DNA of 64,000 bases from Candidatus Dojkabacteria bacterium (GTDB taxonomy: Bacteria > Patescibacteriota > Dojkabacteria > SC72). The notes under the pieces were generated by a model. That model saw only the letters and a program-made list of their open reading frames with translations, did no database searches and was not told where the DNA came from. Both the position numbers and the translations under genes were made by a program. Shown here piece by piece: positions 11,301 to 57,569 of this stretch; within the stretch, counting starts at the first letter, position 1; each line of letters begins with the position of its first letter. The stretch lies in contig JAXGRK010000002.1 in assembly GCA_040765985.1 (NCBI GenBank), positions 9,940-73,939 of the forward strand, given 5' to 3'.

Positions 11301-12497
11301 CTAAATCTCTTTAGCGTATTTCTGATATACCCATCCCTTGTTACCATCATTAAAGAGTATTTCATACCATCCTTCTTCTTTCTTAGTAACAATAAATACA
11401 TCACCTTCATTTGCGACTTCAACCTTTGCACAGCTATACCATCTGCACTCTCGAATATTAACAAATCCATATTCAGGGGATACTATCTCTATTAGTTTGT
11501 TGTCTCCTTTGACAATTGTAAACTCAATATCAAACTCACTACCCTCTACGCTGTTTTCCGAAGATTTCATAAAGTAGTAACTCTCTTTGTATGTACCTGG
11601 TCTACTTTTAGCATTTAATTCGAATGTGACTTCTGTTGAGTCTCCTGGCTTAACATAGCTGCTTTTAATATATGTTGGTTTACTGAAACTCTCCCATACA
11701 CCATTAATTGCATGAGGACTTTCTATCGAATCTTTTGTAGAGATATATATGTATGTAGAACCACCAAACCAAGTAAAATCATTTTCATTTTTAATATCTA
11801 CTTTAACTAACAACTTTTTCCCTATCTCTACCTCTTTGGAATAATCGACAGAAATAATACTTCCCTTGTATTCGAGATCTCCTTCCTCACTCCATTGAAC
11901 ATTTTCAATAGAACTTAGAATAGAATTTCTCATAGATTTCTGAGATGAAGAGTATGTGAGATATGATATGGATTTATCATCTTTCTTTATTTTTAAATCT
12001 ACAAAATCCCAACTTCCCTCTTTTACACCGTATTTATATGATAGCTCTTGAACAAAAGAGGTAAGTGAAGAACTCGCTCTTGGAGATAGGGTTGTACTAT
12101 TATCCATTATTCCAATTAAAACAACGCCTTCACCTGCCTGTAATCCAGGATTTATACCTATACCACCTCTCGCACCTTCATATATATTCCCACTTCTATC
12201 AATTAGATAGTTATATGGTATATCGTTTAATTTTAATCTTGTGATACTGTAGTAATACAAGAGTTTAATCCATAGCTGTGGATCATCAGTCAAATCATTA
12301 CTGAAACCATTTAATTGGGATATATATATTTTTTGAGGAAAAGAGTAAATATCAGATTCTTCAGAGAGAGTTTCATCAAATCCCATATCTTCTCTTTTAA
12401 CGATATCTATTGCATAAATATCCTTAGGAAAGAAGGAAAATATATTCAAAGCAATTACAGATATAAAAAAAACTTTTATTAGTTTCATACTGTCCAT
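11301..12497 (-). CDS. Secreted amidase_2/PGRP-like peptidoglycan amidase domain protein with C-terminal SH3b domain
   Basis: 398 aa. Signal peptide. YNYLIDRSGNIYEGARGG...VVLIGIMDN resembles the amidase_2 core. The C-terminal EGDVFIVTKKEEGWYEILFNDGNKGWVYQKY is SH3b-like. Confidence 0.5.
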   Translation of the reverse strand: MDSMKLIKVFFISVIALNIFSFFPKDIYAIDIVKREDMGFDETLSEESDIYSFPQKIYISQLNGFSNDLTDDPQLWIKLLYYYSITRLKLNDIPYNYLIDRSGNIYEGARGGIGINPGLQAGEGVVLIGIMDNSTTLSPRASSSLTSFVQELSYKYGVKEGSWDFVDLKIKKDDKSISYLTYSSSQKSMRNSILSSIENVQWSEEGDLEYKGSIISVDYSKEVEIGKKLLVKVDIKNENDFTWFGGSTYIYISTKDSIESPHAINGVWESFSKPTYIKSSYVKPGDSTEVTFELNAKSRPGTYKESYYFMKSSENSVEGSEFDIEFTIVKGDNKLIEIVSPEYGFVNIRECRWYSCAKVEVANEGDVFIVTKKEEGWYEILFNDGNKGWVYQKYAKEI

Positions 12498-12509
12498 TGT
12501 ATCACATAA

Positions 12510-13478
12510 CTAATCTTGAGAAGAAAGATAATCAGGGTCTATAGCATTGATATAATAAACTGCTGGTACAGAATAAACTTCCTCTTCGTATTCAACCTCA
12601 CAGGTAGCATCCACTTTATATATTGGCAAGATATTACTCTGTTCCATACCTTGATATAAGTAGATGATGTCAAGATCTCCAGATTTGCAATTAGATACTT
12701 TATCAAGGACATCATCTATCCACGAGGAAAAACTATAGGGGGTATCATCAATTACAGAATTTAAAACTGCAAAATTAACATAACTTTCTTTTGGATACTC
12801 TTCCAGTTTAATATATGTTAATAGTAAATCTTTAGAGATTAAAGGCACCACAAATTTTTCTTTTATAAATTCTGTCAAAATAACTTCTCCCCCTTTTAAT
12901 TTTCCATTTGAATTGAATATTAAAATATCAGAATACTCTTTACTACGTCCGAGTTGAATAGGAACTTCATTCAATACCCTGCTTGCATAATACCAGATAT
13001 CACCATTCTCAGATATTTCTGTTTTAGAAAAGATAAAATTATAATCCTTTTGTAAATATGATTGAAAAAAGAGTGCAAATGCATCTTCGCCCTCTGATAT
13101 ATCAAGTGGTTTTGATAAATCAAATGACAGAATTCCTGTACTCATTTCATAGGAAAATGAATTACTATTATCTTCCCAGTATATTACCTCTTTATTATTA
13201 TTTTTATCTAGAGATAAAGATACTTTTTGAATCATTGATTCTACAATTGAGGTGTTATCTTCTTGGTTAATTTCATATATATTAAAATCTCGGTTAGAGA
13301 AATTTTTTAAACCTGAGATATCGAGTTTTAAATCTGTTTTTCCCAATTGTACGGATTTTATTGGTTCAGAAGGATAATTTTTCTTCGTTGATTTTTCTAC
13401 AAGATAAATAACAATAAATATTAATAATAAAATGATTGAGATAGTAAATAATATTTTTATATATTTATTTGTTTTCAT
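12510..13478 (-). CDS. Bitopic membrane protein (N-terminal TM, roughly 290 aa extracytoplasmic domain), function unknown
   Basis: 322 aa. One N-terminal TM (ILFTISIILLLIFIVIYLV). VirB8-like topology only, no motif evidence. Confidence 0.5.
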   Translation of the reverse strand: MKTNKYIKILFTISIILLLIFIVIYLVEKSTKKNYPSEPIKSVQLGKTDLKLDISGLKNFSNRDFNIYEINQEDNTSIVESMIQKVSLSLDKNNNKEVIYWEDNSNSFSYEMSTGILSFDLSKPLDISEGEDAFALFFQSYLQKDYNFIFSKTEISENGDIWYYASRVLNEVPIQLGRSKEYSDILIFNSNGKLKGGEVILTEFIKEKFVVPLISKDLLLTYIKLEEYPKESYVNFAVLNSVIDDTPYSFSSWIDDVLDKVSNCKSGDLDIIYLYQGMEQSNILPIYKVDATCEVEYEEEVYSVPAVYYINAIDPDYLSSQD

Positions 13479-13489
13479 AATATATTGTA

Positions 13490-16109
13490 TTAATTACATT
13501 GATTACACCCCGAAAGACCTGGGACATCACAACCGAAACTTTGTAATACAGCCAAAGGATCAACGGCAGAGCCATTCATTTTTATCTCAAGATGTAAGTG
13601 GGGACCAGTCCAACAAGCTCCTGTTGGTAACTTAGTAAGAACTGCAGCAATAGGTTTTCTATCTTCGGATATAAAATCTCCTCCCAACTCGCTTCCTATG
13701 GCTAACTCTTCATTTTAACTTAACATGAACGAAAAGAAAGGTATAAGTATTTGTTCCATCAAATGCCTCAAATTTTACATAATCGCCAGCAGGAGATTTA
13801 CAAGGATAGTTTGCAGAACTTGTCACTTTACATGAAGTACCTGGTTTTCCACAGAATTGAGGAGCGTAAAGACCACCACTAAAGCCCAAATCAACAGGTT
13901 TTGCACCTGAAATATTTGCATGACTAAAACAGGTACCATCATCAACCCAACCTTGAGTACAACTAACACCCGAAGAAGTCCCAAGTATACATTTTTCCCC
14001 TGTAAGTGGTGGCATGACAACATCTTCTTCTTCATAGTCATCTTCGGGGTTTTCTGGTGTAGGTTCTGTGAATTCATAATCAGGACATATTTCAACTTTA
14101 CCAGGTATTACACTTCTATAGGAGTATGTCCATACATTGTAATCTGCTACTGCCTTATTGGCTATTCCTGAAAGTAAAATAAAAACTCCAACTATACCAA
14201 AAGCTATCAAAACACCTAAAGACATAAAAACCTTCGTTAGTTTCATAAGCATATCAGTAAGAACCCATGTGACAGCAGTAACAAAAGCACTTCCTAAGGG
14301 TGTTAATACCAAACCAGCAGCACCAGCTATTGCTGTAACTAAAGATCGGACTAAAGTTTTTAATCCACCCTGAGTAATCCATGTTCCAAGAAGTTTTCCA
14401 GCACCCGATTTAATCATCCATTTTTTAAGAGTTGCATTTTTAAGAAGCATTCTCGCAAAGTTTACCCTAGCTTTTTTCGTTATTTTGTTTTTGAAAAAAC
14501 TTTCAATTTTCCCTTTTATTCTATTTCCTGTACCAAATATATTTGCTACCGCCTTCAGTGTTTTTGACCTCTTAAATACATATTCTATTCTTCTAAGATT
14601 CTTTTCTGATATTCCAGAAGTTTTTAATTTAAGTAAGGTTGTCCGCATGTATTCATCCATTTTTTTACCAGAAAGTTTTTCAAAATTTGCAAACAACTCT
14701 TTTTGAGATAAACCCTCTATATCATCAAGGGATTCAAGTTGTTTACTGAGAAGAAAAACAAATCCCTCCCCATTGAACAAAAAAGTATTGATTAAAGATT
14801 TAGGAGTCATGTAGTAAAGAGATTCTCCCATTTCGTTATATGCGTTCTTTATTGAAGATCCCTTTCCTGTAGTTTCTTCTGCCCTAAGAATTCTAACTCC
14901 AAAAGCTTGTTTTGTAGTTGTGGGACAAAGGACAGAGTTTCTTCCTTCGTTAAAAAAATCTCCATTAATAATACTAGGTACCAAATTCTTCATCGAAAGT
15001 CCCCCCCAAACATCATTTATTGAATTTACATATCCTTCAATCCTTCCCAAACCACCGATAAAATTATTTCTATTACCTAATAGTTTTCTTGCAATTTCTC
15101 CATCTCTAATAGCGCCCTCTATTTCTTGTCTTCTAGCAGGATCCTTTTCATCTTTCAAGGCCAGTTTTAAATCCTGCATTTGCGATTCATTTCTCATATT
15201 TATGAGCAAGAGACTTTTTTCATACATTTTTCTCTGTTTCTCTTCTGGTGATCCAGCAGAAGCATTCTTTAAAGGACCAATCTTACTCATTAAGTGGTCT
15301 TTTTCTAATTGTCTGTATAGTTCTGGACTTGAAATATCTATATCCTCTGTTTTGGTATGTGTTGCTCTTCCAAAACCCTCAGCTGCTTCTCTCCCATATC
15401 TTTGAGCCAAATATCTTTGAATAAATTCCTTCTGAACTCCCCCTGAAAGATCTTTCTCATTTGCAAATTTTTCAATAAATTCATACTTTTCTTGCTCTCC
15501 CATTGAATCCCATTTATTTCCAAATGTTCTTCTTCCAATTAGTTCAATACTCCTATCTCTCATAAAATCTGAATTGGAAAGAGAATCTGTTCTAATATTT
15601 TGTCCTATTGCTCTTTGTACCTTGTATGCTTCGGCTTTTTCATTTGCACCCGCACGAGCTAGGGCAATTTCTTTTGCTTCCTGATCGCCATATTGATGAG
15701 CCCACGCAGTAGTAAGGAAATCATCCATTACCTCTCCTAAGAATCTTACCTTATTTTGCTTTCTGGCTAAGTTAATATCATCAATAGATTTTTGAACATA
15801 ACCCGCAGGATCTTTTAACAAATCTATGATTTTTCCAGTACTTATTGATAAACCACCATACTCATCAAATTTAACTTCTCCAAGTTTAATATCGAGCATA
15901 CGATTGTATTCTTTAATCATTGTGTTAGATAGAAACACACCAGGCATTTCTAACGATGCCACTAATGCATCAGTTAACATACTCTCTCCAGAGATACCAG
16001 TTGGTTTAATAGGTCTTCTTTTATCAGGACTTTTTTTAGATTCCTTGAAGATGAAGTCAAATATAGAACCTAATGCATCATAGTTTTCACTTTTATTTTT
16101 TTGAGCCAT
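13490..16109 (-). CDS. Large (roughly 870 aa) membrane protein with C-terminal M23/LytM peptidase domain. C-terminus split by an apparent 1-nt frameshift at about 13688-13712
   Basis: The track ORF 13710..16109 (roughly 590 aa soluble N-terminal region, then 2-3 TM helices, then a Cys-rich region) ends FLFVHVKLK*. The +1 frame continues ...ELAIGSELGGDFISEDRKPIAAVLTKLPTGACWTGPHLHLEIKMNGSAVDPL (track ORF 13490..13687), which is the M23 HxH signature. Adding one A in ttaaaatga fuses them. Confidence 0.6.
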
Positions 16110-16122
16110 AAAAAACTATAAC

Positions 16123-17601
16123 TTAACCTTTAAATAATCCACCTACAAGTGGTATTTTCGATAAACTGTCTTTTACATTCTTTGATGCCTCTCCCATAGC
16201 ACGAGATGAATCTGCGGGAAGCCATGCCTCAAGATATTTTGGGGCTTGTGCTGCAAAGTATAGAGACAAAACTTTTAATACTGCAATGAAAATACCCGCA
16301 GAAAGATTTACTGGCATACCATTAGGGTCTCCAACTAATTTCGCGGGAAATGATAAACTCATATCCCCTGTTTGTACTGAATTTAACACATTTGGAAGAT
16401 AGATAATAAAAAGAACCATTGGGAAGACTAAAACATTCCTAACTATTGAAAGAAACCAGTTAGTAAGGAATTTGTTATTACCTGGAATCGCACCCAATGT
16501 TATTTGTATTGGTCCCGAAATAACAGCAAACAATAAAGAGAAGTATGCTTTAAATAAAGTTATTAGAACTTTAATTGCACCAAATAAGATAATACCTATC
16601 GCTGATATTACTAATATAATACCAACAAATCCTATAGCTCCAGTCACAGGATTACTAAAAATAGCAACTAATGCAACTACGCCTGCAACAGTACTTGCAG
16701 TAGCAACTTTTGTAAATGAATCCAACCCGATTCCTTGTAAAAAGTCTGATAATGTACCAGCTAATCCCGAACCACTATTAAATGTTGCCTTAATAAGATT
16801 TCCTAAAGTAGATATGGGAGTAGGATCCTCGACATCTAGAATCCATAAAACAATCCCATTCATTACACCTCCTAAATCTATAATAAGACCTGCTATAGCA
16901 AAACTAAAAGTTGCAATTATCAAAGATATAATTACTCTTGGTAAAACATTTCCTAACGTTACAATTGTTTGTCCTCCTAATTTATTCCTAAACATTATCA
17001 TAAATCCGGCAGCTATCATGATAAGAACAAAAACTACATAAGAGATATTTAATACACGTGTCCATATAACATCTATACCTGTTTTTGATAATTCATTATA
17101 TCCAGAATCTGCGTATAATTTATTTGTTTGATCACTATAACCAGGTACCCATTGCTGAGCCAGGTGTTCTGGCACATCAAAGGTCGGGTAATTAGCATAT
17201 AACCCTTCATTCATATCAAATGTCATACCTAACAAACCTCTTTGTAAATCTTTCGGAATATTATTATTTGCCATTGCAAGAGCATCCCCTCCTTCAAGAA
17301 TTTCAGGGAACAGATATGAAAGAAATCTTGTTGCGACATTGTAATCTTCTAAGCCACCTCGGCTACCCATATTATCTTCAAAAAGATTAGCTACCATATT
17401 AATAATATTCTGAAAAGTTTTTGTCTCCTCCCACGCAGGTTTAATCTTAATTGGATATTCTTCATTCGCTGCATATGCGTTGAAGGAAAAAAAGAAAAGA
17501 AAAGAAATTCCAAAACTAATAATCAACATTTGAAAGAAATTCCAATTGATATTGTCTTTTCTTTGATTAATTAAATGATATGTTTTTTTGACAAAGGACA
17601 T
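16123..17601 (-). CDS. Polytopic membrane protein (8 or more TM helices after a signal peptide and periplasmic domain). VirB6/TrbL-like by topology only
   Basis: 492 aa. Signal-like N-terminus, roughly 150 aa hydrophilic segment, then many hydrophobic helices rich in G/A/I/L. No diagnostic motif readable by eye. Confidence 0.45.
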   Translation of the reverse strand: MSFVKKTYHLINQRKDNINWNFFQMLIISFGISFLFFFSFNAYAANEEYPIKIKPAWEETKTFQNIINMVANLFEDNMGSRGGLEDYNVATRFLSYLFPEILEGGDALAMANNNIPKDLQRGLLGMTFDMNEGLYANYPTFDVPEHLAQQWVPGYSDQTNKLYADSGYNELSKTGIDVIWTRVLNISYVVFVLIMIAAGFMIMFRNKLGGQTIVTLGNVLPRVIISLIIATFSFAIAGLIIDLGGVMNGIVLWILDVEDPTPISTLGNLIKATFNSGSGLAGTLSDFLQGIGLDSFTKVATASTVAGVVALVAIFSNPVTGAIGFVGIILVISAIGIILFGAIKVLITLFKAYFSLLFAVISGPIQITLGAIPGNNKFLTNWFLSIVRNVLVFPMVLFIIYLPNVLNSVQTGDMSLSFPAKLVGDPNGMPVNLSAGIFIAVLKVLSLYFAAQAPKYLEAWLPADSSRAMGEASKNVKDSLSKIPLVGGLFKG

Positions 17602-17623
17602 CGTATATAAAATAATAATTTAT

Positions 17624-19039
17624 CTAAGGACCAATATCTCGATCAATTCCTCTAGTTCCTTTTACTTTTTCAAGTAAAAATTTATTATACTCTACATCTG
17701 TTGGAGTATCATCTACTGTAGGAATATCATCGTACTCATTAACTTTTCTCTCCTTATAAAGATGAGACATATCCCAAGCACACTTAACAGTTGCTTGAAT
17801 TGGTGTTCCCGCAATTTCAACTAGACAATCTGTTAAATAATACTTCTTTTTACCTAAATCTGTTGATGGTATAGATACAACCATATTCCTTGTATCCATA
17901 AATGTATTAGTACATGCAGATCCACTTGCACAGTCTTCATCCGAACCAAACGGAGAGGACATCATAATAACAATATCGTCAGTAGAAATACATTCTGGAT
18001 CACCATCCCCGTAAAAATAACATTTAATAAGGTCCATTATCCCTTTAATTTTGTCATACACTGTAGATCCTGTTGTTCCCCAACCTAATATATATTTTAG
18101 TCTTTCTACCGATCTAGTAACGATATCCGTTTTACATGCATTATACTGATTGTTATCCCATAATATAAATTCAGCATCTTCACACTCATCTATTGGTTCA
18201 AGAGTTTCTTCCTTCTCATTGGGTGCTCTATAAAAGGAATCTTGCAGAAATTCAGAAATAACATTAGACTTTTGAGGATTTACATTTGATATATTATTAT
18301 ATTTTTCTTCTTCGCACTTATTACCTAATTCCTTCTCAAGAGCTATATTGCCATCTTCAGATTTTGCTTCAGTATCACCGAACTTGAGAAAATAATCAGT
18401 CTTAAAAGGTACATCTTCTTTAATACCCTTATATTCATAAATATTGTTATTTGGAGGAAGCATAGAGTTAGCCAATTCCTCATCAATTTGCTCTCCTGCT
18501 GGTTTAAGAGTATAAGAATCTTTTTTTATCAATCTGTTGGAATCTTTAACTTCAACACCTGAATAGAGTTCTAATGGAATAGTTACTTTAATCAAGAATA
18601 AATCTGCATCTTTAGATATTTGAAACCCTCCCTTATCTTTGGCACCATACTCTTGATAGAAAGGAACATCAATCTCACCTTCCCTAAAACAAATAGATTC
18701 TGTCTTTATCTCCATAATGCTATCATTTTCACATTGCACAGAAGAATTCGTTGCTGATAATACTTCAGAATTATTTTTAGAAGTCTCCTCTGCAATTTTC
18801 ATAATGGTATTCTCCAATTCTTTTATCTCCGAGGTTTTTAATATCTCTTCATCGGGAAATAACTCTTCTAAAGATATAATTTCATCAAATTCTTGATTTT
18901 TTGAAGAAAGAGATTTGAGATCAATAGTTTCTTTGTCTGACTTTGAAAAGTTAACAACAAATATTATAAACATGGAAACAAATACCATTGAAAGTAAAAA
19001 CAATATAGGTTTTAATTTGTTTGAAACCCTTCTATACAT
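17624..19039 (-). CDS. Membrane-anchored Cys-rich secreted protein, unknown function
   Basis: 471 aa. N-terminal TM anchor. About 18 Cys, mostly in the C-terminal third. Confidence 0.55.
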   Translation of the reverse strand: MYRRVSNKLKPILFLLSMVFVSMFIIFVVNFSKSDKETIDLKSLSSKNQEFDEIISLEELFPDEEILKTSEIKELENTIMKIAEETSKNNSEVLSATNSSVQCENDSIMEIKTESICFREGEIDVPFYQEYGAKDKGGFQISKDADLFLIKVTIPLELYSGVEVKDSNRLIKKDSYTLKPAGEQIDEELANSMLPPNNNIYEYKGIKEDVPFKTDYFLKFGDTEAKSEDGNIALEKELGNKCEEEKYNNISNVNPQKSNVISEFLQDSFYRAPNEKEETLEPIDECEDAEFILWDNNQYNACKTDIVTRSVERLKYILGWGTTGSTVYDKIKGIMDLIKCYFYGDGDPECISTDDIVIMMSSPFGSDEDCASGSACTNTFMDTRNMVVSIPSTDLGKKKYYLTDCLVEIAGTPIQATVKCAWDMSHLYKERKVNEYDDIPTVDDTPTDVEYNKFLLEKVKGTRGIDRDIGP

Positions 19040-19057
19040 TTACATATTCTCAAATAT

Positions 19058-20671
19058 TTAATTAAGTAATAACCCATAATCCGTTAACAAATCAACCTTT
19101 CCTCCACCTACCTCTCCTAACTTACTTACATCCAATTCTATCTCATTTAATGATAGATTAAAATCATATTTATTACCTATAGCACCAAGAATATAAATCT
19201 GTAATATATCAGCATCAGAGAAAGAGAAATACGAAGAACCATCCTCGCTTCTTACATCCCCAATAACTAACTCCCATGTACCATTCGTATCAGGTAAAAC
19301 AGAAACATAACCAGAACTACCAACCGTACCTAATTCATCATTATCAATAATCTTTCCAACTAATACTAAATCAGATAGATCGTTAGAATTTACAACTTCT
19401 CCTACCCTAGTTTCTAATGGAGGAGAAGAGGAGAGTGTAGAGAAAGTTTTAAACGTATATTTCTGCCCATCGTAATCATACACATCATCACCTGAATATA
19501 TTTCAAAGTAGTATGTAGTATCTGGTTGTAATCTACCACTCTCTATGTAATGAGAGTAGTACTCTCCTTTTTCAGTATAGGTATCTCTTGAATCGACAAT
19601 CTCCTCAGTTAACTCTGTCTTACTAGTACCATATTTAACATATCCCTCCTCTTTTTGAGATGATCTCCAAGAGATTACAGCATAAGTATCTGTTAAATTT
19701 GTTACTGTTACAGTATCCTCTCCCGATTCCATCTCTATACTTCCTGCACTTGCAACTAAATCCTCCCATTGAACATCCTGTCTTCTCGTGTAAGCTTGTG
19801 GTTGAACAGGAACAACTGGTTTAACAGGTTGCTCTGGTTCTTCTGGCTCTTGTGGTTCTTCAGGAATAATAACTTCCTGAGAAGTACCTAAATCTGCAAT
19901 ATCAGGGAAATACTCTAACAAACTACTACCAAGAACCTCTTCTAACTGAATTGATTGAAGTAGTTTTCCCTTACTATCAAAAAGAGATGAATACGCACCC
20001 TCCAGTACTCCTCCTCTATCAACACCACTTCGTGCAAGAACTGTAAGATTCGTACTTTCCGTTACCTGGAGAATACTTTTATCCGATACACTTCTAATTG
20101 ATGACAAGTCTAAAGTCCAATTCCCAGTAGTAGGAACTTGAGTAGAAACAGGATATGTACTTTTATCACTAAAAAAGACATAAAGTATTACATCCTCTAA
20201 ATTACTCCCTGTAACCGAACCATACACAGGATTGGGAATTGGAGTAGTATCACTAATTGGGGCAGTTGAGAACTTATATTCAACCCCCTCCTTATTCTTA
20301 AACTTTTTACCATCTGAAAGTATTATAAAAGTATACTCAGTAGATGGCTCCAAGCTATCCAAAACAACATAATGGGAAACCTTGTTGGAGCTACTCCGAC
20401 TATCCTGAATGGGACTTTGTTCAACCCCATTAAGAATAGGGACAACATATCCACTGGTCTTTTTCTCTGTGACCCAACTTACTGTTAGAGAATTTGTAGT
20501 TATATTCGATATCAATACACCCTGAGGTGTAGAATCTGAACCCGCATTCGCAATAAATTGAACACCCTTGTAAACAAGAAAAACTACTGCAGGAGTCCCA
20601 AACAGTAGTAGTAAAACTAACCCTAACTGTCTCTTCTGATGTGGAGTTAAATTCATCTTTCTATGATACAA
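19058..20671 (-). CDS. Membrane-anchored surface protein with two Fn3-like domains
   Basis: 537 aa. N-terminal TM. SNITTNSLTVSWVTEK and VTNLTDTYAVISWRSSQKEEGYVKYGTS are Fn3-type strands. Pro/Glu-rich linker in the middle. Confidence 0.6.
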   Translation of the reverse strand: MYHRKMNLTPHQKRQLGLVLLLLFGTPAVVFLVYKGVQFIANAGSDSTPQGVLISNITTNSLTVSWVTEKKTSGYVVPILNGVEQSPIQDSRSSSNKVSHYVVLDSLEPSTEYTFIILSDGKKFKNKEGVEYKFSTAPISDTTPIPNPVYGSVTGSNLEDVILYVFFSDKSTYPVSTQVPTTGNWTLDLSSIRSVSDKSILQVTESTNLTVLARSGVDRGGVLEGAYSSLFDSKGKLLQSIQLEEVLGSSLLEYFPDIADLGTSQEVIIPEEPQEPEEPEQPVKPVVPVQPQAYTRRQDVQWEDLVASAGSIEMESGEDTVTVTNLTDTYAVISWRSSQKEEGYVKYGTSKTELTEEIVDSRDTYTEKGEYYSHYIESGRLQPDTTYYFEIYSGDDVYDYDGQKYTFKTFSTLSSSPPLETRVGEVVNSNDLSDLVLVGKIIDNDELGTVGSSGYVSVLPDTNGTWELVIGDVRSEDGSSYFSFSDADILQIYILGAIGNKYDFNLSLNEIELDVSKLGEVGGGKVDLLTDYGLLLN

Positions 20672-20694
20672 GGTACCTATATCAATATCAACGA

Positions 20695-21030
20695 TTAGCT
20701 ATTAGATCTCTTAGAGGAAATGCCCTCTAAAATTCCAGAACCAATTGCCATAATAGAAGTAATCTTTTTTATTGGTACCAAAACAGCACTATTCACTTGA
20801 TATACAGTACCTTTTACAGTACTAACCATCCCTTCTACATCACTGATAATTCCATTTGCCACTCTTAAAGTTTCCTGTGCATCAATAACAATTTTCTTAG
20901 CTTCCTTAATTGTATTCCCAGATTCTTTAAGTAACATTGCTAATTGATATAGAACAAAACAAACAAAGAATGTAAAAACACCAATAATAATCATCCAGTA
21001 CAAACTTGGTATACTCTCCATTTTGATCAT
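20695..21030 (-). CDS. DUF948-like small membrane protein
   Basis: 111 aa. N-terminal TM followed by a T/V/S-rich helical region, matching the DUF948 pattern. Confidence 0.4.
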   Translation of the reverse strand: MIKMESIPSLYWMIIIGVFTFFVCFVLYQLAMLLKESGNTIKEAKKIVIDAQETLRVANGIISDVEGMVSTVKGTVYQVNSAVLVPIKKITSIMAIGSGILEGISSKRSNS

Positions 21031-21101
21031 AGTGTAAATTTAATATATATAATTATGCTTGTATTTACATACTAATGTCAAGCTAAATGGTATAATTAAG
21101 T

Positions 21102-22876: not shown

Positions 22877-24980
22877 TTATTCCTTAGTAACTTCTTCCTT
22901 CTTCTCGTTTACCTGTTTAATACTTAGCTTTAACTTACCATCTCTTTCCTTAGAAACAAGCTTTACTTTTACATCATCTCCCTCTTTAAGATACTTTCTT
23001 ACATCTTTAACAAACTCGTCTGTAATTTCGGACACATGGACTAAGCCAGATAGACCTGGAGCTATATCTACAAATGCACCATACTCCATTATACTTGCAA
23101 CTTTACCGTCATATATTTCTCCTACAACTGGTACTAAGCCAAGTTTTTTAACATAAGCTAAAGCCATATCTATTGATTCTTGATTCATTGCATATATATT
23201 TACAGCACCACTTTCCTCTACGGTAATTTCTGCCCCTGTTCTTTCAGTTAACTCTCTAATATTTTTTCCTCCTGGACCTATTAACTCTCCAATCTGATCT
23301 ACTGGAATTTCTGCTCTAGCAACCTTTGGAGCAAACTTGGATAGTTCTGCTTTTGGCTGAGAGATTGCTTTCTCCATTACCTCTAATACTTTTAATCTAG
23401 CAATTTTTGATTTCTCAAAGGTTTCTTTAACAATCTCTATGGTTAAACCCTTCATCTTGTTATCCATTTGTACTGCTGTAATACCATCTTTTGTACCTGT
23501 TACTTTGAAATCCATATCTCCATAGAAATCTTCTACACCCTGCATATCTGTAAGAATATGGAATGTACCATTCTCTTCATTTACTAAACCACAAGCTATT
23601 CCCCCAACCATCTTCTTAATTGGAACACCTGCAGCCATTAGTGCTAATGTTGAACCACAAGCTGATGCCATTGAACTTGAACCATTCTCTCCCTGAACTT
23701 CAGACATTACCAAAATTGTATATGGGAATTCATCTACAGATGGAATGACAGGAATTAGTGCTTTCTCTGCTAACATACCATGTCCTATTGCTCTTCTACT
23801 TGGAGATAGACGTGCTCTATCAGCATCTCCATAAGCAAAAGGTAAATCGTTGTAGTAATGCATATATCTTTTCTCTTTCTCACCTAACATATCATCAACT
23901 AACTTTGCATCTTTAAGTGTACCCAATGTAGCAATAGAGAGCACCTGTGTTACACCTCTGGTAAATAGGGCAGAACCATGAACTCTTGGTAGCAAGTCTA
24001 CCTCTGCATCCATTTCTCGTATTTCATCAAAGTCCCTGTTATCAGCTCTTTTACTCTTTTCTGCAACATACTTTCTCATGGTCTTCTTAAGAAGCTTTTC
24101 ATATCCCTCACTCATTTGAGATTTAGAGTATTTACCTTCAAAGTTTTTAAATACCTCTTCTTTAGTAGACTCATGTAACTCTTTATCTCCTTTTAAGAGG
24201 TTTTCTAAAAGTCTATCACCTAAAAATTTGGATATCTCTTCTATCATTGCTTCATCTATACTAAATGAAACATACTCTTTTTCAACCTTATCTAATTTCT
24301 TTAAGAATTCATTTTTGGACATCTACCCATTTTTGCATTTCAGATAAGCTCATTTCCATTGCCTTAATTACATCTGATTCAGGGATTTCATAACAACCTG
24401 CATCAATCATTGTAAATACCTTTCCATCACCCCCTAATACATAGTTCATTTTATTCTCCTCATCTACATCTTCCATACTTCTATAGATTGCCTTAATACT
24501 ATCTCCCTCCATACCCATTCGGACACCTGCAATAGGGCCATCAAATGGTGCATGTGAGTTCATAAGGGCAACTGACGCAGCATTTATTGCTAAAATTACA
24601 GGATCATTCTCCTCATCATATGACATTACAGTAACAATCAAGCTTAACTCATCCCTGTAATCGTCTGGAAATCTAGATCGTAGTGCTCTATCTATCATTC
24701 TTGCTTTTAAAACTGCATCATCACTTGGGAACCTCTCAATTTTTACAAATCTAGATCCATTAATCTTACCCGATGCATAGAATCTCTCTATATATTCAAC
24801 AGACATTGGGAAGTAATCATTTTCCTGTTTTGCTTTAGCAGTATTAACATTAACCTCAACAACGGTATCCCCCATTCTTGCAATAACTGCACTTTCTGAC
24901 TTTAAAGCAAGTTTTCCTGTTTCAAATGAACACTTCCTACCATCTATTTCAAACTCATAAATTTTTTGATTAAACAACAT
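22877..24980 (-). CDS. pnp: Polyribonucleotide nucleotidyltransferase (PNPase), split into two ORFs by an apparent 1-nt deletion at about 24309-24322
   Basis: ORF 24309..24980 is the first RNase PH domain. ORF 22877..24322 is the alpha-helical linker, second PH domain, KH (IGPGGKNIREL) and S1 domains. The frames differ by 1 at ccaaaaatg. One extra A gives ...KWVDVQKNEFLKKLDK... and a continuous roughly 704 aa PNPase. Confidence 0.9.
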
Positions 24981-25433: not shown

Positions 25434-26615
25434 TTATCGAGAAACCTTATAACAGTACAGTTCATCACCTTCGTTGCTTTCTACATCAATATCAAGAATC
25501 ACACCACAATCTTCTCCCTGTTTTACCTCATGTACAGTTTCTTTTCCTTTTCGTAATGATTTTATTTTACCTTCTGCCAATATTTCATCATTGCGAACAA
25601 CATAACATTTACAATCTCTTTTTAATATTCCATCCTTAACCCTAGAACCGAGTACCTTAGAACCATCTGAAAGTACAAACATCATTTTTATTACAGCACT
25701 TCCAATCTCTTCTTCGACATGTGCAGGAGTAGACAACATCTCCAACGCATCTTCAACCTCTTCAACCAATTTATAAATGATGGAGTAAGTTCTAACCAAA
25801 ACTCCACTCTTTTTTGCTACATCCTCAGAACCCTTTTCTATACCTACTTCGAAACCCAAAAGAATCGCTTTTGATAGTTTAGCCATCTCAATATCTTTAT
25901 TTGTTATATCTCCAACTCCATCAGATACAATATTAACTGAATACTCATCTTTCTTAACTTTCACTAATGATTGTTTTAATGCTTCTAGAGAACCTTGAGA
26001 AGAGCTCTTTACAATTACATTAAGAATCGTATCTCCGTCTTTCTGTTCTTCATCAAATATTGAACCGAATATGTCATCTTCAACAATACTCAAATCCTCT
26101 AATGTGGGTTCTACTTTGTACAAAGTAGAGAGTAATTTAAGATTATTTTTTTCTAAAATGAAAACTTCTGTACCTAAAGGTATTAAATTCGATATCCCTA
26201 TTACTTTACCACCACAACCACAAGATAAATCACAAATATTCTCTCCCTCCTCTGATATTATTCCTTTTACTTTCTCAATTTCAAAACTTTCTCCTTTTTT
26301 ATACCCTAACCAAGAGCCCTTACATAGGTCCCCACTTATTAACACCAATGAAGATATATTTCCTCTAGTCTTATCCTTTACTGATTCTAATACATAGGCC
26401 CTTGCAGCAACTCCTTCAGGTAAAACCCCTCTATCCTCTAAACCCTCAACATCAGCAACGAGATTGATTAAATCTAAAAGTTCGGAGATTCCTTTCCCAG
26501 TTTTTCCAGAAACCTCAATTACAGGTATATTTCCTCCCATACCCTCTACTTGTACCCCTTCTGTTTGTAATATCTCTTTTAATCTTAGCAAATATTTACA
26601 TTTCAGGCAGATCAA
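25434..26615 (-). CDS. infB: Translation initiation factor IF-2, intact 3' part only (end of G domain, domain II, C1, C2)
   Basis: 393 aa open frame. NIPVIEVSGKTGKGISELLDLI is the G5 region, followed by the beta-barrel and C-terminal domains. The frame is bounded upstream by stops. The 5' continuation is recognisable but disrupted (next feature). Confidence 0.85.
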   Translation of the reverse strand: MICLKCKYLLRLKEILQTEGVQVEGMGGNIPVIEVSGKTGKGISELLDLINLVADVEGLEDRGVLPEGVAARAYVLESVKDKTRGNISSLVLISGDLCKGSWLGYKKGESFEIEKVKGIISEEGENICDLSCGCGGKVIGISNLIPLGTEVFILEKNNLKLLSTLYKVEPTLEDLSIVEDDIFGSIFDEEQKDGDTILNVIVKSSSQGSLEALKQSLVKVKKDEYSVNIVSDGVGDITNKDIEMAKLSKAILLGFEVGIEKGSEDVAKKSGVLVRTYSIIYKLVEEVEDALEMLSTPAHVEEEIGSAVIKMMFVLSDGSKVLGSRVKDGILKRDCKCYVVRNDEILAEGKIKSLRKGKETVHEVKQGEDCGVILDIDVESNEGDELYCYKVSR

Positions 26616-27120
26616 TCTTGTTTATTACAACAATGGGTTTTATGGAGGATTTTTATTATTTCTATAGATTCAACAGTTTGTGGCTTAACACTATCATTAG
26701 CAGCAACTATTAAAAGAACAATATCTGCAATACTACTCCTCTAGATCTCATCAACTGAATGCTTCATGACCAGGTGTATCTATGTAATTTTTTTAGAAGC
26801 ATTTTTGCCTGGAGCAATTGTAAATACACAGATATCTTTGAGTTACCACCTGGCTTCACAACTTTGAACATGACTCTTTCTAATGTAATCAAGTATTGTA
26901 GCTTTTCCACATACATGACTCAATATTGCAACAATTGGGACTCTGGCTTGAGCACATATATTTTTGTTTCTCAACTTTTAACCATTTTAAACTATAATAC
27001 TTTCATCTTAATATTACTTCCTCTTTTTCTCTTCTTCTTTTCCTGCAACCTCTTCTTGTTTGCTCAGCATACTCCCCTCAACAGCATCTTCCTTTTTCTC
27101 TTTCTTTTCTTTTCTTCTTA
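26616..27120 (-). pseudogene. infB: Disrupted 5' part of infB (G-domain remnants in three frames with in-frame stops)
   Basis: Minus-strand pieces: PIVAILSHVCGKATILDYIRKS (P-loop with one codon missing and substitutions), IDTPGHEAFS, MRSRG, SSIADIVLLIVAANDSVKPQTVESIEII and [13 protein letters not shown] (G4 NKID). Each sits in a different frame. At least 4 frame changes within about 150 nt. Boundaries approximate. Confidence 0.6.
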
Positions 27121-28205
27121 TCTCCCTTCTCTAACTTCTTCATTCTCTTCCTGTATTTCTTCTGGTATCTCACCCTGGGCTCCAACAATATCAATCTTAA
27201 ATACCTGTCAATTTCCAAGCTAATCTTACATTTTGACTCCTCTCTACTGATAGCTATGATAGCTGATCAGAAGGAGATACCTGTTGCTGTATCATCAGAT
27301 ATTTCCAAGCAGAATCAACCTTTGCAGGACTTAATGCATTAGCAACAAATCTCTCTCTAAATCTTCATCCTTATCAATTATATCAATCTTTTCTCAAGCA
27401 AGTTCATTCATAATGTTTGCTATACGAATACCTCTCTGACCTACACATGAACTAATTGGATCAATACCATCTTGATGTGACACATGGGTAATTTTTTTCA
27501 TCTTCTAGAACTAGCTTTGCAACTGCCTTAATTTCAAATTCACACCAGATTCAATCTCAGGAACTTCCAATTTAAAAAGCTCTATTAAGAAATTAGATCT
27601 GCCTAGATACTAATATTTCAGAGTCTTCAATACTCTTAAGTAATACTTTGTACCTCTCTCCAACTCTATAGTAATTCATTAGCAATCTGCTCCTCTTGTG
27701 GCATAAATGCAGTTGCCCTTGCCTATCTCCATTACTGCCATACCTTTTGCATTCTTGTACCAAAGCTGTATATACCTCTCCTACCTTATCACTAAATTAC
27801 CTATTACTGCATCTCCTTTTCAGATTCTCTATCTTTTGGTAGTAAAACCTGTTTAGCGGTTTGTGTAGCTATCCTTCCTAAATCATCAGATGCATCTCAA
27901 TCTGAACAGAATCCCCTATCTCAACACTTGGAGAAATTAACTCTGCCTTCACTTAATGCAATCAGTCTCAGTCATCGTTTACCTTTTTAACAACTTTCAT
28001 TGCAAAGTTTAAAACTCACCAGTCTCTCTATCAACTCCTACTGCTAAATTACTACCTAACTTTTCATCAATCTCCTCATATTCAACCTTCCATGTTTCTC
28101 TTTCTTAATGTACTTAATATTTATTCCAAGGCCTTAAAGATCTCCTTTATCTATTCTCTTTTCTGTTGCTATCTGATTTATGGCAGCTACTAACTCTGAT
28201 GTCAT
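27120..28205 (-). pseudogene. nusA: Disrupted nusA remnant
   Basis: From the ATG at 28205, MTSELVAAINQIATEKRIDKGD (NusA N-terminus). Further on, DPISSCVGQRGIRIANIMNELA*EKIDIIDKDEDLE and FVANALSPAKVDSAWKYLMIQQQVSPSDQLS*LSVERSQNVRLAWKLTGI*D (KH1/KH2), with TGA, TAA and TAG stops and frame changes. Boundaries approximate. Confidence 0.55.
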
Positions 28206-28251
28206 TGCTATATATATAAAATATTAATAAAAAATTATCATTACATACATA

Positions 28252-28285
28252 CTAAAAAAGGTGAGAAAAACATCTCACCATATCT
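28252..28285 (-). terminator. Intrinsic-terminator-like hairpin (ggtgag-N8-ctcacc followed by T6 on the minus strand)
   Basis: Perfect 6-bp GC-containing stem at 28260-28279 with a U-run 3' on the minus transcript. Lies between the dnaJ remnant and the nusA remnant. Confidence 0.45.
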
Positions 28286-28289
28286 TTAA

Positions 28290-29360
28290 TACATCTTCCA
28301 ACGAAGTATACTACAAGTGTGTATTAAAATCCAAATACCAAAAGATATTTTAGCTTTGCCTTTAACTCCTCCCAAAGCTTCTTTTCTTCTCATTAATCTC
28401 TTAGGAATATCTACATCCACTCTCACATACAAATTTCCTTGTACCATCTTTACCTAATACTGGTACCTTCTCCCTTTACTCTAAATATGGTGCCTGGTTG
28501 TGTACTACTTGGTATTTTTAACTTAACATCACCTTTTTAATAGTTTCAATATCTATCTTTCCACTGCAATTGCAGTATGAACAGGTATACTTACAGAGTA
28601 CAAATCATTCCTCTTCTATCAAATTTCTCAGATGGCTCGACCTCAACTTCAATAAATAGGTCTCATACTCTGTATTAATACCTGCGTTTCCTCCATCTCT
28701 AAACCTTAAAACCATTCCATCACATGCTCCTGCTGGTATATGTATCTTCATATTCTCTGTCTTTGATTCATGGTTAAATTTTTACCTGCACAATTCATAC
28801 AAACTTTTTCTGGGATGTCTCTACCACTACATTTAGAACACTGGGCCATTACGGATATCTGACTCAAGAAACTGTTTTGAACTCTTCTCTACCAGTTCCC
28901 TATATACATCACATGTTTTTTCCTTCACTGTACTACTTCCTACCCTTACACTCTTCACACTTTATATTTCCTTTGACCAACCTTAAACTCCCCAGCACTT
29001 TCCATTGCTTCATCAAACCCAAATCTCATCTTGTACTCATATTCTCGCCACCAAATATTCCCGAGCTTCATTCTGATTCCCAACTACAAATCAACTAAAA
29101 TTATTTCCATTTCCTCCAAAAATGTATTGAAAATATCACCTATCAAAAGGTGCCACTGCAGCTTACATATTCATACCCACTACCATTGCCACTTCTTGGT
29201 CAAAACCCTGAGTACTGGCATGACCATACTGATCGTAAGCTGCTTTTCGTGTCATCAGAAAGGACTTCGCATGCCTCCCGAACCTCTTTAAATTTATCCT
29301 CAGCACCATCTTCCCTCAGTTTACATCCGGATGAAACTTCATAACAAGCTGGCATGCCTT
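28290..29360 (-). pseudogene. dnaJ: Disrupted dnaJ remnant
   Basis: From the ATG at 29360: MPACYEVSSGCKLREDGAEDKFKEVREA.EVLSD (J domain, HPD region degraded). Then KAAYDQYGHA...GF and DIFQYIFGG (G/F-rich region), then Cys-rich fragments. All are broken by stops and frame changes. Confidence 0.5.
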
Positions 29361-30229
29361 TTTAATTTTCTTCTTTTCGAATTCTTGTCTATACCAAGAA
29401 CTTCATAGTAATCTCTTTGTTCATATAGGTGATATTCTAGCAGACAAACGCATTATGCCTACAGATGACATCAAAATCTTTAACTGATAATATATTTAAC
29501 ATGGAAAATGATATACAAATACAAAGAGAAAATGAAAGGAAAATATCTAATACAAAAGAAACTTTCTGTTTTTGTTTTGTTGGGTTATCATTATTTGCCC
29601 AATCTATACCCTTACTCTCTTCATATATCCAAGGAGAGGTTAACATCTTAAAACAGAAACTAATGAAAGATCCTTTGCCAGAATCATATAGGCAGTATAT
29701 TGAAGACCACCTGTATACCATGATCCTGGAGTAAGTTACTTTGCGAATCTTCTCAAATAGTGTTGAAAACCTTAAATACGATGGTCTATTTACATATGAC
29801 CCAACAACTAAAACAACTAGAGAAGTACTTGTAGACAAAAGAGAAAAAGGGCTAAACATGTACATCAATATACCTTCAATAGTTATACTCAATATACTAG
29901 TAACAACTCCTAATGTAGAAAGAAAATGAAGAAGTATAAGATAGATACTCTAAATCTGATTAGCACATTTTAAGGCACCCCTATCCCTGAGATGGAGAAA
30001 CTCCCTTTATATACGGACAGTGCAGTGATAAGTTTTTTTAATAGACACTCTAATCTCCCAGAAACAATATTTACCAAACTTGAGAATGTGGATATTGAGA
30101 TAGTGTAGAGATAGAGAGAGAGGATACTACTCTTTCATATATTGTTAGGAAGTAAAAATTGTTTCTCCAGATGATTTTTCCATTTTGAAAACTCAAGATA
30201 TGAAACTGTAACCTTAATGACTTGTTGGC

Positions 30230-43222: not shown

Positions 43223-45046
43223 ATGGTTAATACGAATTTAAATACAATACGCAATTTCTCAATAATTGCACATATAGATCACGGTAAATCTACATTGGCA
43301 GATAGAATACTTGAGCAAGCACATATCGATATCTCAAGAGATAAAAGAGAGTCTCGAATATTAGATAGATTAGATTTAGAACAAGAGAAAGGGATAACGA
43401 TAAAACTACAAGCATGCAGATTGATATGGAAAAATATAGAGCTAAATCTCATAGACACTCCTGGTCATGTAGATTTCTCCTATGAAGTATCTCGATCTCT
43501 TGCTGCTTGTGAGGGAGCACTTCTTCTCATAGATGCCTCACAAGGTGTACAAGCACAAACCATATCTAATACACAAAAAGCCCTAGAGCTTGGATTAACC
43601 TTAATACCAGTAATAAACAAAATTGATTTACCAAATATAAACATCAAAGAGAAAGAAGATGAATTAATTCAATTACTTGGGTTTAAGCGAGAAGAGATTC
43701 TTAAAGTATCTGGTAAAACAGGGGAAGGTATAGAGAAACTTCTAGATACAATCATTGAGAAATGCCCTCCCCCAATTGGAGATATTAACAAACCTCTTAG
43801 AGCTTTAATATTTGATTCTTACTATGACGAACATCGAGGTGTAGTAATAGCAGTAAGAGTGTTTGATGGAAATATAAAATATGTACCTGGAAAATCAGAT
43901 GATCTTTACATATTACAAAGGCAACAACCCTTTAAACCAACAGAGATAGGGATATTTACACCAGATTTAGAAGAAACTACCCAACTATCTGCAGGAGAAG
44001 TTGGATATATAGCTACTGGCTTTAAAGATATTAGTATGTTTACTGTTGGAGACACAGTATCTAATACAAAAGACACATTACCATTAGATGGGTACAAAAC
44101 ACCAAAACCAAATGTATACGCTACATTCTTTCCAGTTACTACAGATCAGTATGAGCCCTTAAAAATTGGCTTAAACAAATTGAGCTTAAATGATGCATCC
44201 CTCTCTTTTTCTGATCAAAGATCAAACCTACTCGGCTCTGGTTTCAGATGTGGCTTCCTTGGGCTTTTACATATGGAAATTATCCAAGAAAGATTAGAAA
44301 GGGAGTATGATGTTGATTTGATAATTACAGCGCCCACAGTAGAGTACAAGGTTACTAAAACAGATGGTACTAAACTTGAGGTTCAAACTCCTCAAGAGAT
44401 ACCCGACCCATCAGAAATATCTGAAATTCAAGAACCATGGGTAAGATTAAAAATTATGACTCCAGATAGATACATGGGACCCCTAATGGAGCTATGTCAA
44501 CATAAAAGAGGAGTATATGTAAATACACAATATCTACCAAACACATCAGGTGACATTCAACTTAAAGATCAATATATTACATTAGAGTATGATATACCAC
44601 TAGCATCTTTAGTATCTAATTTTTTTGATTTACTCAAAAACAGATCTAGTGGATACGCATCAATGGAGTATGAATTTATTGATTTCTTTCCAGTAGATTT
44701 GGTAAAAGTATCGGTTCTTGTAAATCATCAGGAAATACCAGCACTAAGTTTTCTTGAAACAAAAAGTTAGCACAAAGTAAAGCGAATAAATTACTTGAGG
44801 TAATGAAAGAAGAGATTCCTAGACAGCAATTCCCTATTCCATTACAGGCATCTATAGGGGCTAAAATAATTGCAAGAGAAGACGTTAAGGGCTTTAGAAA
44901 AGATGTTACTGCTAAACTATACGGTGGAGACTACACTAGAAGATTAAAATTATTAGAGAAACAGAAGAAAGGTAAAAAAAAGATTGAAAATGATAGGGCA
45001 AGTAAACATCCCTCAAGAAGCGTTCTTAAGTATATTAAAAACATAA
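43223..45046 (+). CDS. lepA: Elongation factor 4 (LepA), C-terminus broken by two apparent 1-nt deletions (about 44760 and about 44965)
   Basis: ORF 43223..44770 has the GTPase motifs ([22 protein letters not shown]) and LepA domains. The C-terminal piece ...[64 protein letters not shown] sits in the frame of track ORF 44803. The final [21 protein letters not shown] is in a third frame after an A8 run. Confidence 0.9.
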
Positions 45047-56911: not shown

Positions 56912-57569
56912 TTACTCTGTATCCCTAATTGCTACTACAACAGTTCTTTTAATATTTGCACCAGCAGGCCAACATGTCATTAAGGTAAGAGTGTCTTGGT
57001 CTAGATATTCACCTAAATACTGTATATCTTTTGGGTCTACAATCTTAACTTCTAGTACTTTGTAAGTATATATATCTCCTTGGTAGCTTACATATAATCA
57101 TCTTTTTCTAATTCATTTAGTAGTAGAAGTATACATTGTACTTCCTTCTTTCATAGAAGTTTACAGCAGAGTGTGCAAACAGAAATACATTTCCTTCTTC
57201 ATTTGGTAGTGCACTTCCTTTAGCGTGTGCTACACCGTATATTAGTGCTGTGCTATACCTTTCCTCATTGTATGGATCTACATTTTTTAATACTTTGGCA
57301 TTAGCTTGTATTTTAGGTATGTAGAGTCCAAAATCACTGTTTACAAACACTATCTCTGTATCTTTTTCAATCTCAGTAGTAATCTCTTCACCTTTAGGGG
57401 TTACTTCTACTTTAATTTCTTCTACTGGTTTAGGAGAGAATTTGTAATCAAAGTATGACCATATTAATGGTTGATATGTAAAAAAAAGAATAACTAATCC
57501 TACAAGAAGTAGTAGGATACCCAGATATTTTGAGTATCCTACTTTTGATTTACTTTTTTCTTCTGACAT
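56912..57569 (-). CDS. Sortase (transpeptidase), frame broken twice near 57060-57116
   Basis: The track ORF 57117..57584 has an N-terminal TM, beta strands and the catalytic His region GVAHAKGSALPNEEGNVFLFAHS. After two frame changes the sequence continues ...LNELEKDDY / LYVSYQGDIYTYKVLEVKIVDPKDIQYLGEYLDQDTLTLMTCWPAGANIKRTVVVAIRDTE*, with the TLxTC catalytic Cys and the conserved Arg. The start is probably the second Met (57569). Confidence 0.8.

Follow-up and report, generated by a model that had tools for sequence, protein, structure and literature searches.

A conserved Dojkabacteria operon as a candidate membrane and cell-wall part of a Patescibacteria-type type IV secretion system

Introduction

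Type IV secretion systems (T4SS) have been surveyed across the candidate phyla radiation (CPR), in which VirB4, TrsD, PrgI and VirB2-like pilins are widespread (Quinonero-Coronel et al. 2025, PMC12102498). In Southlakia the T4SS is essential for epibiotic growth, and the pilin array is unusual for monoderms (PMC12857230). We analysed 64,000 nucleotides (nt) of DNA from a Candidatus Dojkabacteria bacterium (GenBank assembly GCA_040765985.1, contig JAXGRK010000002.1, positions 9,940 to 73,939 of the forward strand), and this whole stretch is referred to as the window. The window, which has approximately 33% G+C, carries a PrgI-TrsD-VirB4 module and an operon of seven envelope genes, numbered here g1 to g7 from position 21030 down to position 11301 of the minus strand. 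Our data indicate that the operon is probably the membrane and cell-wall part of a chromosomal, relaxase-less Patescibacteria-type T4SS that is encoded apart from PrgI, TrsD and VirB4.

The survey recovered only 480 VirB6 homologues, which were 'scarce or absent' in some classes, 'suggesting extreme sequence divergence', and it found few VirB8 and VirB1 homologues; it dealt mainly with the neighbourhood of virB4 (PMC12102498). Its main text does not mention YycI, and refers to Peptidase_M23 only where some VirB1 homologues carry it as an accessory domain (PMC12102498). Two Dojkabacteria assemblies in Table S1 are marked 'Yes' for VirB4, and one Paceibacteria genome in Table S3 has the order VirB6, one further gene, VirB3, TrsD and VirB4 (PMC12102498). 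The genes of a T4SS can be dispersed (PMC12102498, PMC12857230).

Results

The fourth gene of the operon, g4 (16123-17601, minus strand), encodes a polytopic membrane protein of 492 amino acids (aa) that we assign, by homology to proteins of T4SS loci, as a VirB6-like component of the CPR T4SS. A hydrophobicity scan gave approximately eight transmembrane segments, with an extracytoplasmic domain of approximately 145 aa between the first and the second. Hundreds of homologues have 41-61% identity to g4, all of them unannotated, and the named ones belong to Candidatus Dojkabacteria (WS6). An exhaustive profile search at E <= 1e-3 found 3361 clusters at 50% identity. Distant members of this family adjoin PF18895 T4SS_pilin arrays and large Peptidase_M23 proteins, and PrgI in one case, and 80 metagenomic loci of such distant members were fetched. 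Comparison of the Dojkabacteria g4 profile with the profile of the polytopic proteins of the T4SS loci by hhalign gave a probability of 100% and an E value of 5.7e-53 over 442 columns. In the distant members the polytopic gene is encoded with virB3 and virB4, whereas in Dojkabacteria it is not. A Foldseek search of the PDB with the AlphaFold model of g4 suggests a VirB6 fold. The top seven matches were all TrwI/VirB6 chains of R388 (E 0.012-0.29, probability at most 1.0), and these chains outranked every other membrane protein in the list. A preliminary description of the window had given this protein a VirB6/TrbL-like topology. The topology and the homology to T4SS-locus proteins support this, although the Pfam TrbL threshold was not reached; weak TrbL matches occur in relatives of g4 (P0192, E 0.005; 3 of 60 proteins, best E 4.4e-4).

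Two further observations concern the g4 family. Among the same 60 polytopic proteins of CPR T4SS loci, TrbL gave weak matches in only the three just mentioned, and the Pfam TrbC/VirB2-pilin families gave weak matches in eight (best E 1e-4), so that a VirB6-like polytopic protein may contain a pilin-like helical hairpin; examples among the polytopic proteins of loci L087-L168 are L144 9860-11620 and L127 9716-11308. In locus L085 (9279-14254), which comes from another CPR lineage, a 737-aa polytopic homologue lies beside dnaA, dnaN, rnpA and yidC. The 677-aa protein after this polytopic gene weakly resembles the N-terminus and transmembrane region of g5. Because neither PrgI nor VirB4 was found within 10 kb, L085 represents a second lineage with a detached membrane module.

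The gene order of the distant loci, in which pilins, VirB4, M23 and CHAP domains were checked by Pfam, places the g4-like gene within T4SS loci. A pilin array is followed by a large protein with one transmembrane segment, the g4-like polytopic protein and a protein of approximately 850 aa on the opposite strand; some loci then have a large M23 protein and a bitopic protein of approximately 330 aa, followed by PrgI, TrsD and VirB4, and a CHAP protein of approximately 900 aa. The order given for the Paceibacteria genome in Table S3 of the survey is the same (PMC12102498). T4SS_pilin-like arrays were present upstream in all 31 loci with at least 6 kb of upstream sequence, and PrgI was present downstream in 16 of the 28 loci with at least 8 kb of downstream sequence. 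All 21 loci with both flanks contained pilins or PrgI, and seven or eight loci extended to VirB4. In eight loci the order was M23, bitopic protein, PrgI and TrsD, with the M23/bitopic pair sitting between the VirB6-like gene and PrgI. This is the same M23/bitopic adjacency as that of g5 and g6 in the window. A protein of approximately 850-1000 aa without transmembrane segment or Pfam match is encoded between the VirB6-like gene and PrgI in many of the loci, always on the opposite strand (for example L141 5981-8632, L144 11637-14234, L111 11804-14413 and L127 11396-14410, all minus strand).

The profiles of the seven operon families were compared with those of five families from the distant T4SS loci. 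Only the pairs g6/bitopic and g5/M23 stood out, and the other 33 pairs, which served as controls, remained below 1%. The g5 profile aligned with that of the large M23 protein of the T4SS loci with a probability of 93.3% and E 2.8e-7 over the transmembrane region and the M23 domain, and the M23 family of the T4SS loci that aligned to g5 includes members that are Pfam-positive for M23. The g6 profile aligned with that of the bitopic protein encoded directly upstream of PrgI over 278 columns (95.3%, E 2e-8), and an alignment built by the tool itself gave 95.5% and E 1.4e-8. Among the open reading frames (ORFs) of the window there was no match to the profiles of three other families of T4SS loci, namely the CHAP protein encoded after VirB4, the large protein that precedes VirB6 and the minus-strand protein of ~850 aa.

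g6 (12510-13478, minus strand) encodes a 322-aa bitopic protein and adjoins the M23 gene. It has an N-terminal transmembrane segment at residues 9-27, which lies within a helix of residues 2-31 in the AlphaFold2 model. This model is confident (pLDDT 88, pTM 0.82), and its ectodomain has the YycI/YycH fold. Foldseek matched it to YycI (2o3o, E 1.8e-7), to the uncharacterised 5coz (E 2.2e-7) and to YycH (9a5d_B, E 1.5e-4), with a probability of 1.0 for both 2o3o and 9a5d_B. The sequence of g6 matched neither the Pfam YycI/YycH families nor VirB8, and a sequence-profile search of the PDB gave no match. YycH and YycI control WalK and autolysins in Firmicutes. Profile scans found no histidine kinase among the operon genes or their neighbours. 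The preliminary description had given g6 a VirB8-like bitopic topology; this topology, with an N-terminal transmembrane segment and an outside domain, is as described, but the fold is that of YycI/YycH.

g5 (13490-16109, minus strand) encodes a protein of approximately 870 aa that has a large N-terminal domain, two to three transmembrane segments and a C-terminal Cys-rich M23 (LytM-type) domain. It had been described as a single protein of 870 aa, but it is not one ORF in the present sequence. A premature TGA at 13710-13712 ends a 799-aa ORF (13710-16109), and the M23 tail continues in another frame at 13490-13714. The ORF frames and tblastn place the frameshift at 13710-13716, where a run of four A residues (13713-13716) is followed by the TGA. 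The intact 874-aa orthologue of locus L001 matched g5 first in frame -3 and then in frame -1, and orthologues of g5 are mostly intact, at approximately 840-950 aa. The motifs SH...D and GPHLHLE are visible in the sequence and are both kept in the orthologue consensus, with an H-D spacing that exceeds the classical HxxxD. Pfam Peptidase_M23 (PF01551) matched the repaired C-terminus with an E value of only 0.034. The orthologue profile reached M23 structures (8s3m at E 3.9e-4, and also ShyA and LasA).

The frameshift of g5 is one of several in the window. In comparison with intact orthologues, g5, PNPase, IF-2, NusA, LepA and VirB4 are frameshifted at 13713-13716, 24309-24322, approximately 26591-26654, 27200-27716, 44758-44770 and 47954-48038, respectively. 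The breaks in PNPase and LepA are at runs of five A residues, and NusA is spread over three frames within 500 nt. A sequencing error in g5 is likely because PNPase and LepA break at similar homopolymers and VirB4, IF-2 and NusA are frameshifted too. Reading g5 as a true pseudogene is unlikely, since the essential PNPase, IF-2, NusA and LepA are broken as well. The simplest reading of the sequence is that the frameshifts would be long-read consensus errors rather than gene decay. An alternative genetic code was also considered. Reading TGA as sense fused no split gene and the breaks are frame changes, which shows that the standard bacterial code is in use. The region 27000-29400, in which fragments of NusA are detectable, has no minus-strand ORF longer than 67 aa, a plus-strand maximum of 86 aa, no Rfam match and a strongly negative GC skew, and it is probably an error-dense coding sequence.

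The seven consecutive ORFs of the minus strand occupy 21030 to 11301 and are separated by 23, 18, 22, 13, 11 and 12 nt, in agreement with the short spacers reported earlier. The hydrophobicity scan found a signal or transmembrane segment in every product, as the preliminary description had claimed for all of them, and g1, g2, g3, g6 and g7 have a single N-terminal segment of this kind. The conserved Met6 of g2 (20656) is the likely true start, which would make the first gap 38 nt. Just 5' of g1 there is a promoter-like site, TTGACA-18-CATAAT (21052-21081, minus strand), which scores 11/12 and is one of the two top-scoring matches within 11.0-21.3 kb. Since promoter-like sites are not enriched compared with shuffled sequences, this is only weak evidence for a promoter. 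The upstream neighbours of the operon are RsmE, RsmB and PNPase, and the downstream neighbours are UvrD/PcrA, a G5-domain protein, a TPR protein, EF-G and EF-Tu. Conservation was assessed in 84 related Dojkabacteria-type loci with 10 kb per side of each. The operon and its flanks, RsmE/RsmB upstream and UvrD downstream, recur in these loci where the contig is long enough, and in complete or long contigs all seven genes and both flanks are syntenic. The orthologues have 22-73% protein identity, and the order, the orientation and the gaps of 11-23 nt are kept down to approximately 22-35% identity. Because the cluster recurs together with its flanks, we regard it as a core chromosomal operon of the lineage and not as a mobile element.

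The other four genes encode envelope proteins. g1 (20695-21030, minus strand) encodes a small membrane protein of 111 aa with one transmembrane segment and a helical tail. As to the earlier DUF948 label, the window protein itself (PF06103, E 0.0035, 17.9 bits) is under the cut-off of 37.2, but weak matches occur in 14 of 23 g1 orthologues at E <= 0.01 (best 2e-6), and we call the protein DUF948-like. As a candidate T4SS pilin, g1 was rejected, with a hhalign probability of only 8%. g2 (19058-20671, minus strand) encodes an N-terminally anchored surface protein of 537 aa with two Fn3-like domains, and its earlier label of Fn3 surface protein was confirmed by Pfam (fn3, E 1.4e-9; Pur_ac_phosph_N, the second Fn3-like domain, E 5e-15) and by profile matches to Fn3 structures. 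g3 (17624-19039, minus strand) encodes a 471-aa secreted or anchored protein with one N-terminal transmembrane segment. It had rightly been called Cys-rich, having 11 cysteines, of which eight are invariant and one is nearly invariant among orthologues, and it had no match in Pfam, NCBIfam or the PDB. g7 (11301-12497, minus strand) encodes a 398-aa secreted protein with PGRP-like, Ig-like and SH3b domains. Pfam SH3_3 matched at E 2e-7, and the orthologue profile matched the SH3b domain 4krt (E 1.3e-5) and, over residues ~45-145, more than 15 PGRP structures (E 1.6e-4 to 0.1). Pfam Amidase_2 (PF01510) did not match the single sequence of g7. Amidase_2 enzymes bind zinc through residues of the types histidine and cysteine, and across 23 orthologues of g7 no position before residue 351 has an invariant or nearly invariant His or Cys. 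The PGRP-like domain is therefore probably non-catalytic and binds peptidoglycan. An amidase_2-SH3b protein had been proposed here; the SH3b domain and the PGRP-like similarity were found, but the zinc-binding residues are lost and the protein is probably not a hydrolase. Of the two peptidoglycan hydrolases proposed for the operon, this leaves g5, which keeps the M23 motif. The profiles of g1, g2, g3 and g7 gave no match in 84 distant loci with the polytopic gene, most of which have T4SS genes nearby. For g3, g4, g5 and g6 no match above threshold was obtained in Pfam, NCBIfam or PHROGs, and none of the Amidase_2, M23, TrbL and VirB8 families to which the preliminary description pointed had a Pfam match above threshold in the window proteins. 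A Rfam scan of the whole window found no RNA family.

The second part of the putative system is on the plus strand. A PrgI/VirB3-like protein (46167-46937) has two transmembrane segments and a Pfam PrgI match above the cut-off (E 4.7e-7). It is followed by a TrsD-like protein related to the N-terminus of VirB4 (46937-47578; NCBIfam TrsD E 2.2e-6 and VirB4_plasma E 1.8e-6, both sub-cut-off) and by the VirB4 ATPase (47586-49954; P-loop_TraG E 4e-27, AAA_10, CagE_TrbE_VirB). VirB4 is present as two ORFs that overlap in different frames at 47954-48038, and the split is probably at a run of seven T residues (47957-47963). The order PrgI-TrsD-VirB4 matches that of other CPR loci. The module is bordered by LepA on one side and, on the other, by an AAA ATPase, a cysteine desulfurase-type aminotransferase, dCTP deaminase and ThyX; as these neighbours are housekeeping genes, the module has no membrane components of its own. 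In the scan of window ORFs no pilin, type IV coupling protein or relaxase was seen. At 256 aa the PrgI/VirB3-like protein is long, and its C-terminus carries a weak Ig-like domain (CarboxypepD_reg / SdrD_B); PrgI homologues in other CPR T4SS loci likewise have 280-390 aa.

Three other features of the window were recorded. The ORF at 44803-45720 (plus strand) has a LepA C-terminal domain at aa 1-63 and an AAA_15/AAA_23 (OLD/SMC-like) ATPase at aa 82-265, and it may have arisen through loss of a stop codon or through a frameshift, or may be a truncated ATPase gene that directly adjoins lepA. A ThyX-like ORF at 53200-54795 (minus strand) has 531 aa with two Thy1 stretches, approximately twice the usual length, and may be a tandem or fused ThyX. 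At 57117-63750 (minus strand) there is a giant surface protein of more than 2066 aa, whose frame is open to the window end at 64000. It has SpaA, DUF11, SdrD_B and DUF7507 domains and an LPXTG-like motif, and a short sortase-domain ORF adjoins it. Together the two resemble a sortase-anchored adhesin or pilus-like locus.

Discussion

Relatives of three of the operon genes, g4, g5 and g6, sit in the T4SS loci of other CPR lineages, and the most likely reading of the operon at 21.03-11.30 kb is therefore that it encodes the membrane and cell-wall part of a T4SS in detached form. The PrgI-TrsD-VirB4 module of the window, standing alone among housekeeping genes with no membrane partners nearby, also favours this. 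The preliminary description had proposed that the operon could be the missing membrane and cell-wall half of the VirB3/VirB4 module or, alternatively, an unrelated surface or attachment apparatus. Independent comparative evidence now supports the first proposal for g4, g5 and g6, but no T4SS link was found for g1, g2, g3 and g7. In such a system of Dojkabacteria, the operon would be separated from the energising module at 46.2-50.0 kb, and VirB4, docked via PrgI/TrsD, would supply the power. g4 might form a VirB6-like polytopic channel or platform subunit. g5, anchored by its two to three transmembrane segments, could open peptidoglycan locally with its Cys-rich LytM/M23 endopeptidase domain, as VirB1/PrgK-type hydrolases do. 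g6 could act on the M23 protein as its partner or regulator, or could replace VirB8 as a scaffold. g7 might tether the complex to the wall through its non-catalytic PGRP-like and SH3b domains, and g1 would be a small DUF948-like membrane subunit. The Fn3 protein g2 and the disulfide-rich g3 may form a distal, host-facing surface part, with no VirB2-like pilin array.

Several results weigh against this assignment. The operon and virB4 are 26 kb apart on opposite strands, which means that the membrane components are not near virB4, and VirB4 or PrgI was found within 10 kb of the operon in none of the 84 related Dojkabacteria-type loci, so there is no linkage in the lineage. For this reason functional coupling to the distant VirB4 is something that we infer. 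No homologue of g1, g2, g3 or g7 was detected in the T4SS loci, and neither the window nor the Dojkabacteria loci gave a match to a pilin profile made from 207 pilin ORFs. With a pLDDT of 59.6 the AlphaFold model of g4 is of poor quality, and the E values of its matches to VirB6 exceed 0.01, with TM-scores of at most 0.49. Pfam TrbL (PF04610) did not match g4 itself, and sequence-profile searches of the PDB with g4 (alignments A1 and A9) gave no match. With the alignment built by the tool, g5 matched the M23 protein of the T4SS loci with 96.8% and E 3e-10, but over the M23 domain only, which is not T4SS-specific. A VirB8 (NTF2-like) fold for g6 is ruled out by Foldseek, as VirB8, PrgL, TraM and TcpC chains are absent among the top 50 matches. 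Both g5 and VirB4 are frameshifted in the present sequence.

Some of these results would be expected if the operon encoded an autonomous surface or attachment apparatus, in which a VirB6-like/M23/YycI-like module was repurposed with lineage-specific Fn3, Cys-rich and PGRP/SH3b proteins and serves host adhesion or an envelope function without VirB4. The lack of linkage to VirB4 and PrgI, the four of seven genes without a T4SS counterpart and the lack of pilins in the window and related loci all fit such an apparatus, and Fn3, SH3b and PGRP-like domains serve in adhesion or in binding to the wall. However, it would leave the lone PrgI-TrsD-VirB4 of the window without a membrane partner, and in every other lineage sampled the families of g4, g5 and g6 form part of T4SS loci. 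We therefore consider the autonomous apparatus possible but clearly the less probable explanation. A further idea is equally tentative. Dojkabacteria might have a pilus-less T4SS in which Fn3 and disulfide-rich proteins replace the VirB2 array and the large pre-VirB6 protein, a YycI/YycH-fold protein stands in for VirB8 and a non-catalytic PGRP/SH3b protein is the wall anchor, or the module might have been uncoupled from VirB4 as a new host-contact organelle.

A housekeeping module of wall growth or division is improbable. It would consist of an M23 peptidase under YycI/YycH-like control, a PGRP/SH3b binder and an unrelated polytopic partner, and it is consistent with the fold of g6, the M23 domain of g5 and the housekeeping chromosomal setting that is kept in all relatives. 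Against it, there is no histidine kinase in or beside the operon, eight CPR T4SS loci have the same M23/bitopic pair between their VirB6-like gene and PrgI, and g4 clearly belongs to a T4SS-locus family. The idea that unrelated envelope genes stand together by chance, without a shared function, can be dismissed as very improbable: most of the products lack a curated family match, but order, orientation and gaps are conserved across the 84 loci, and the recurrence of the same genes and flanks indicates that the arrangement is not due to chance.

The T4SS is the one CPR machine that has been shown genetically, in Southlakia, to be essential for the epibiotic lifestyle. Published surveys, which looked mainly near virB4, found equivalents of VirB6, VirB8 and VirB1 in a minority of genomes. 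The polytopic family described here (approximately 3,400 clusters at 50% identity) is mostly missed by the Pfam TrbL/VirB6 profile, yet in the T4SS loci of CPR its members occupy the place of VirB6. Two more conserved families are associated with the T4SS, namely an M23 peptidase anchored in the membrane and a bitopic partner with the YycI fold, and in a whole class the membrane part would be encoded away from the ATPase. These families are candidates for structural and genetic work on the connection between ultrasmall bacteria and their hosts, and they may provide better profiles for the annotation of CPR genomes.

Comparison of single components with known proteins shows both likeness and difference. 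g6 is like YycI and YycH (2o3o, 9a5d) in its N-terminal transmembrane helix and multi-domain alpha/beta ectodomain, and both are tied to the control of cell-wall hydrolysis. Unlike them, g6 has no WalK-like kinase nearby and no Pfam match, and its gene is beside an M23 peptidase and, in other CPR lineages, beside PrgI. TrwI/VirB6 of R388 (7o3v, 8rt9, 8rtd) is the best structural match of g4, and both are polytopic helical membrane proteins. However, the identity is 14-17%, with the TM-scores already given, and g4 has 492 aa compared with approximately 270 modelled residues; g4 also has an N-terminal extracytoplasmic domain and no VirB5 partner.

Gram-positive conjugative T4SS, such as those of pCF10 (PrgH/PrgI/PrgJ/PrgK/PrgL), ICEBs1 and pCW3 (Tcp), combine VirB4, VirB3, a VirB6-like protein, a bitopic scaffold and an anchored wall hydrolase. 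The component logic of the window is the same, and PrgK also carries a LytM/M23-type domain. Unlike these systems, the window has no relaxase, oriT or mobile-element context, its bitopic protein has a YycI/YycH fold in place of VirB8/NTF2, and g5 has M23 only, with no SLT or CHAP domain.

The closest described systems are the chromosomal T4SS of Patescibacteria, such as that of Southlakia epibionticum ML1, which is related to MPF_FATA. The locus of the window differs from them in its two parts on opposite strands, 26 kb apart, in a polytopic protein that escapes the standard VirB6/PrgH/TrbL profiles, and in an operon that has Fn3, Cys-rich and PGRP/SH3b proteins while no VirB2-like pilin array was found. 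What the two have in common is PrgI/VirB3, TrsD and VirB4, a VirB6-like polytopic protein, a peptidoglycan peptidase instead of a classical VirB1 and a chromosomal housekeeping setting; the scan of window ORFs also showed neither relaxase nor coupling protein. The putative system is related to the monoderm MPF_FATA class and is a variant of the known CPR T4SS rather than a new system.

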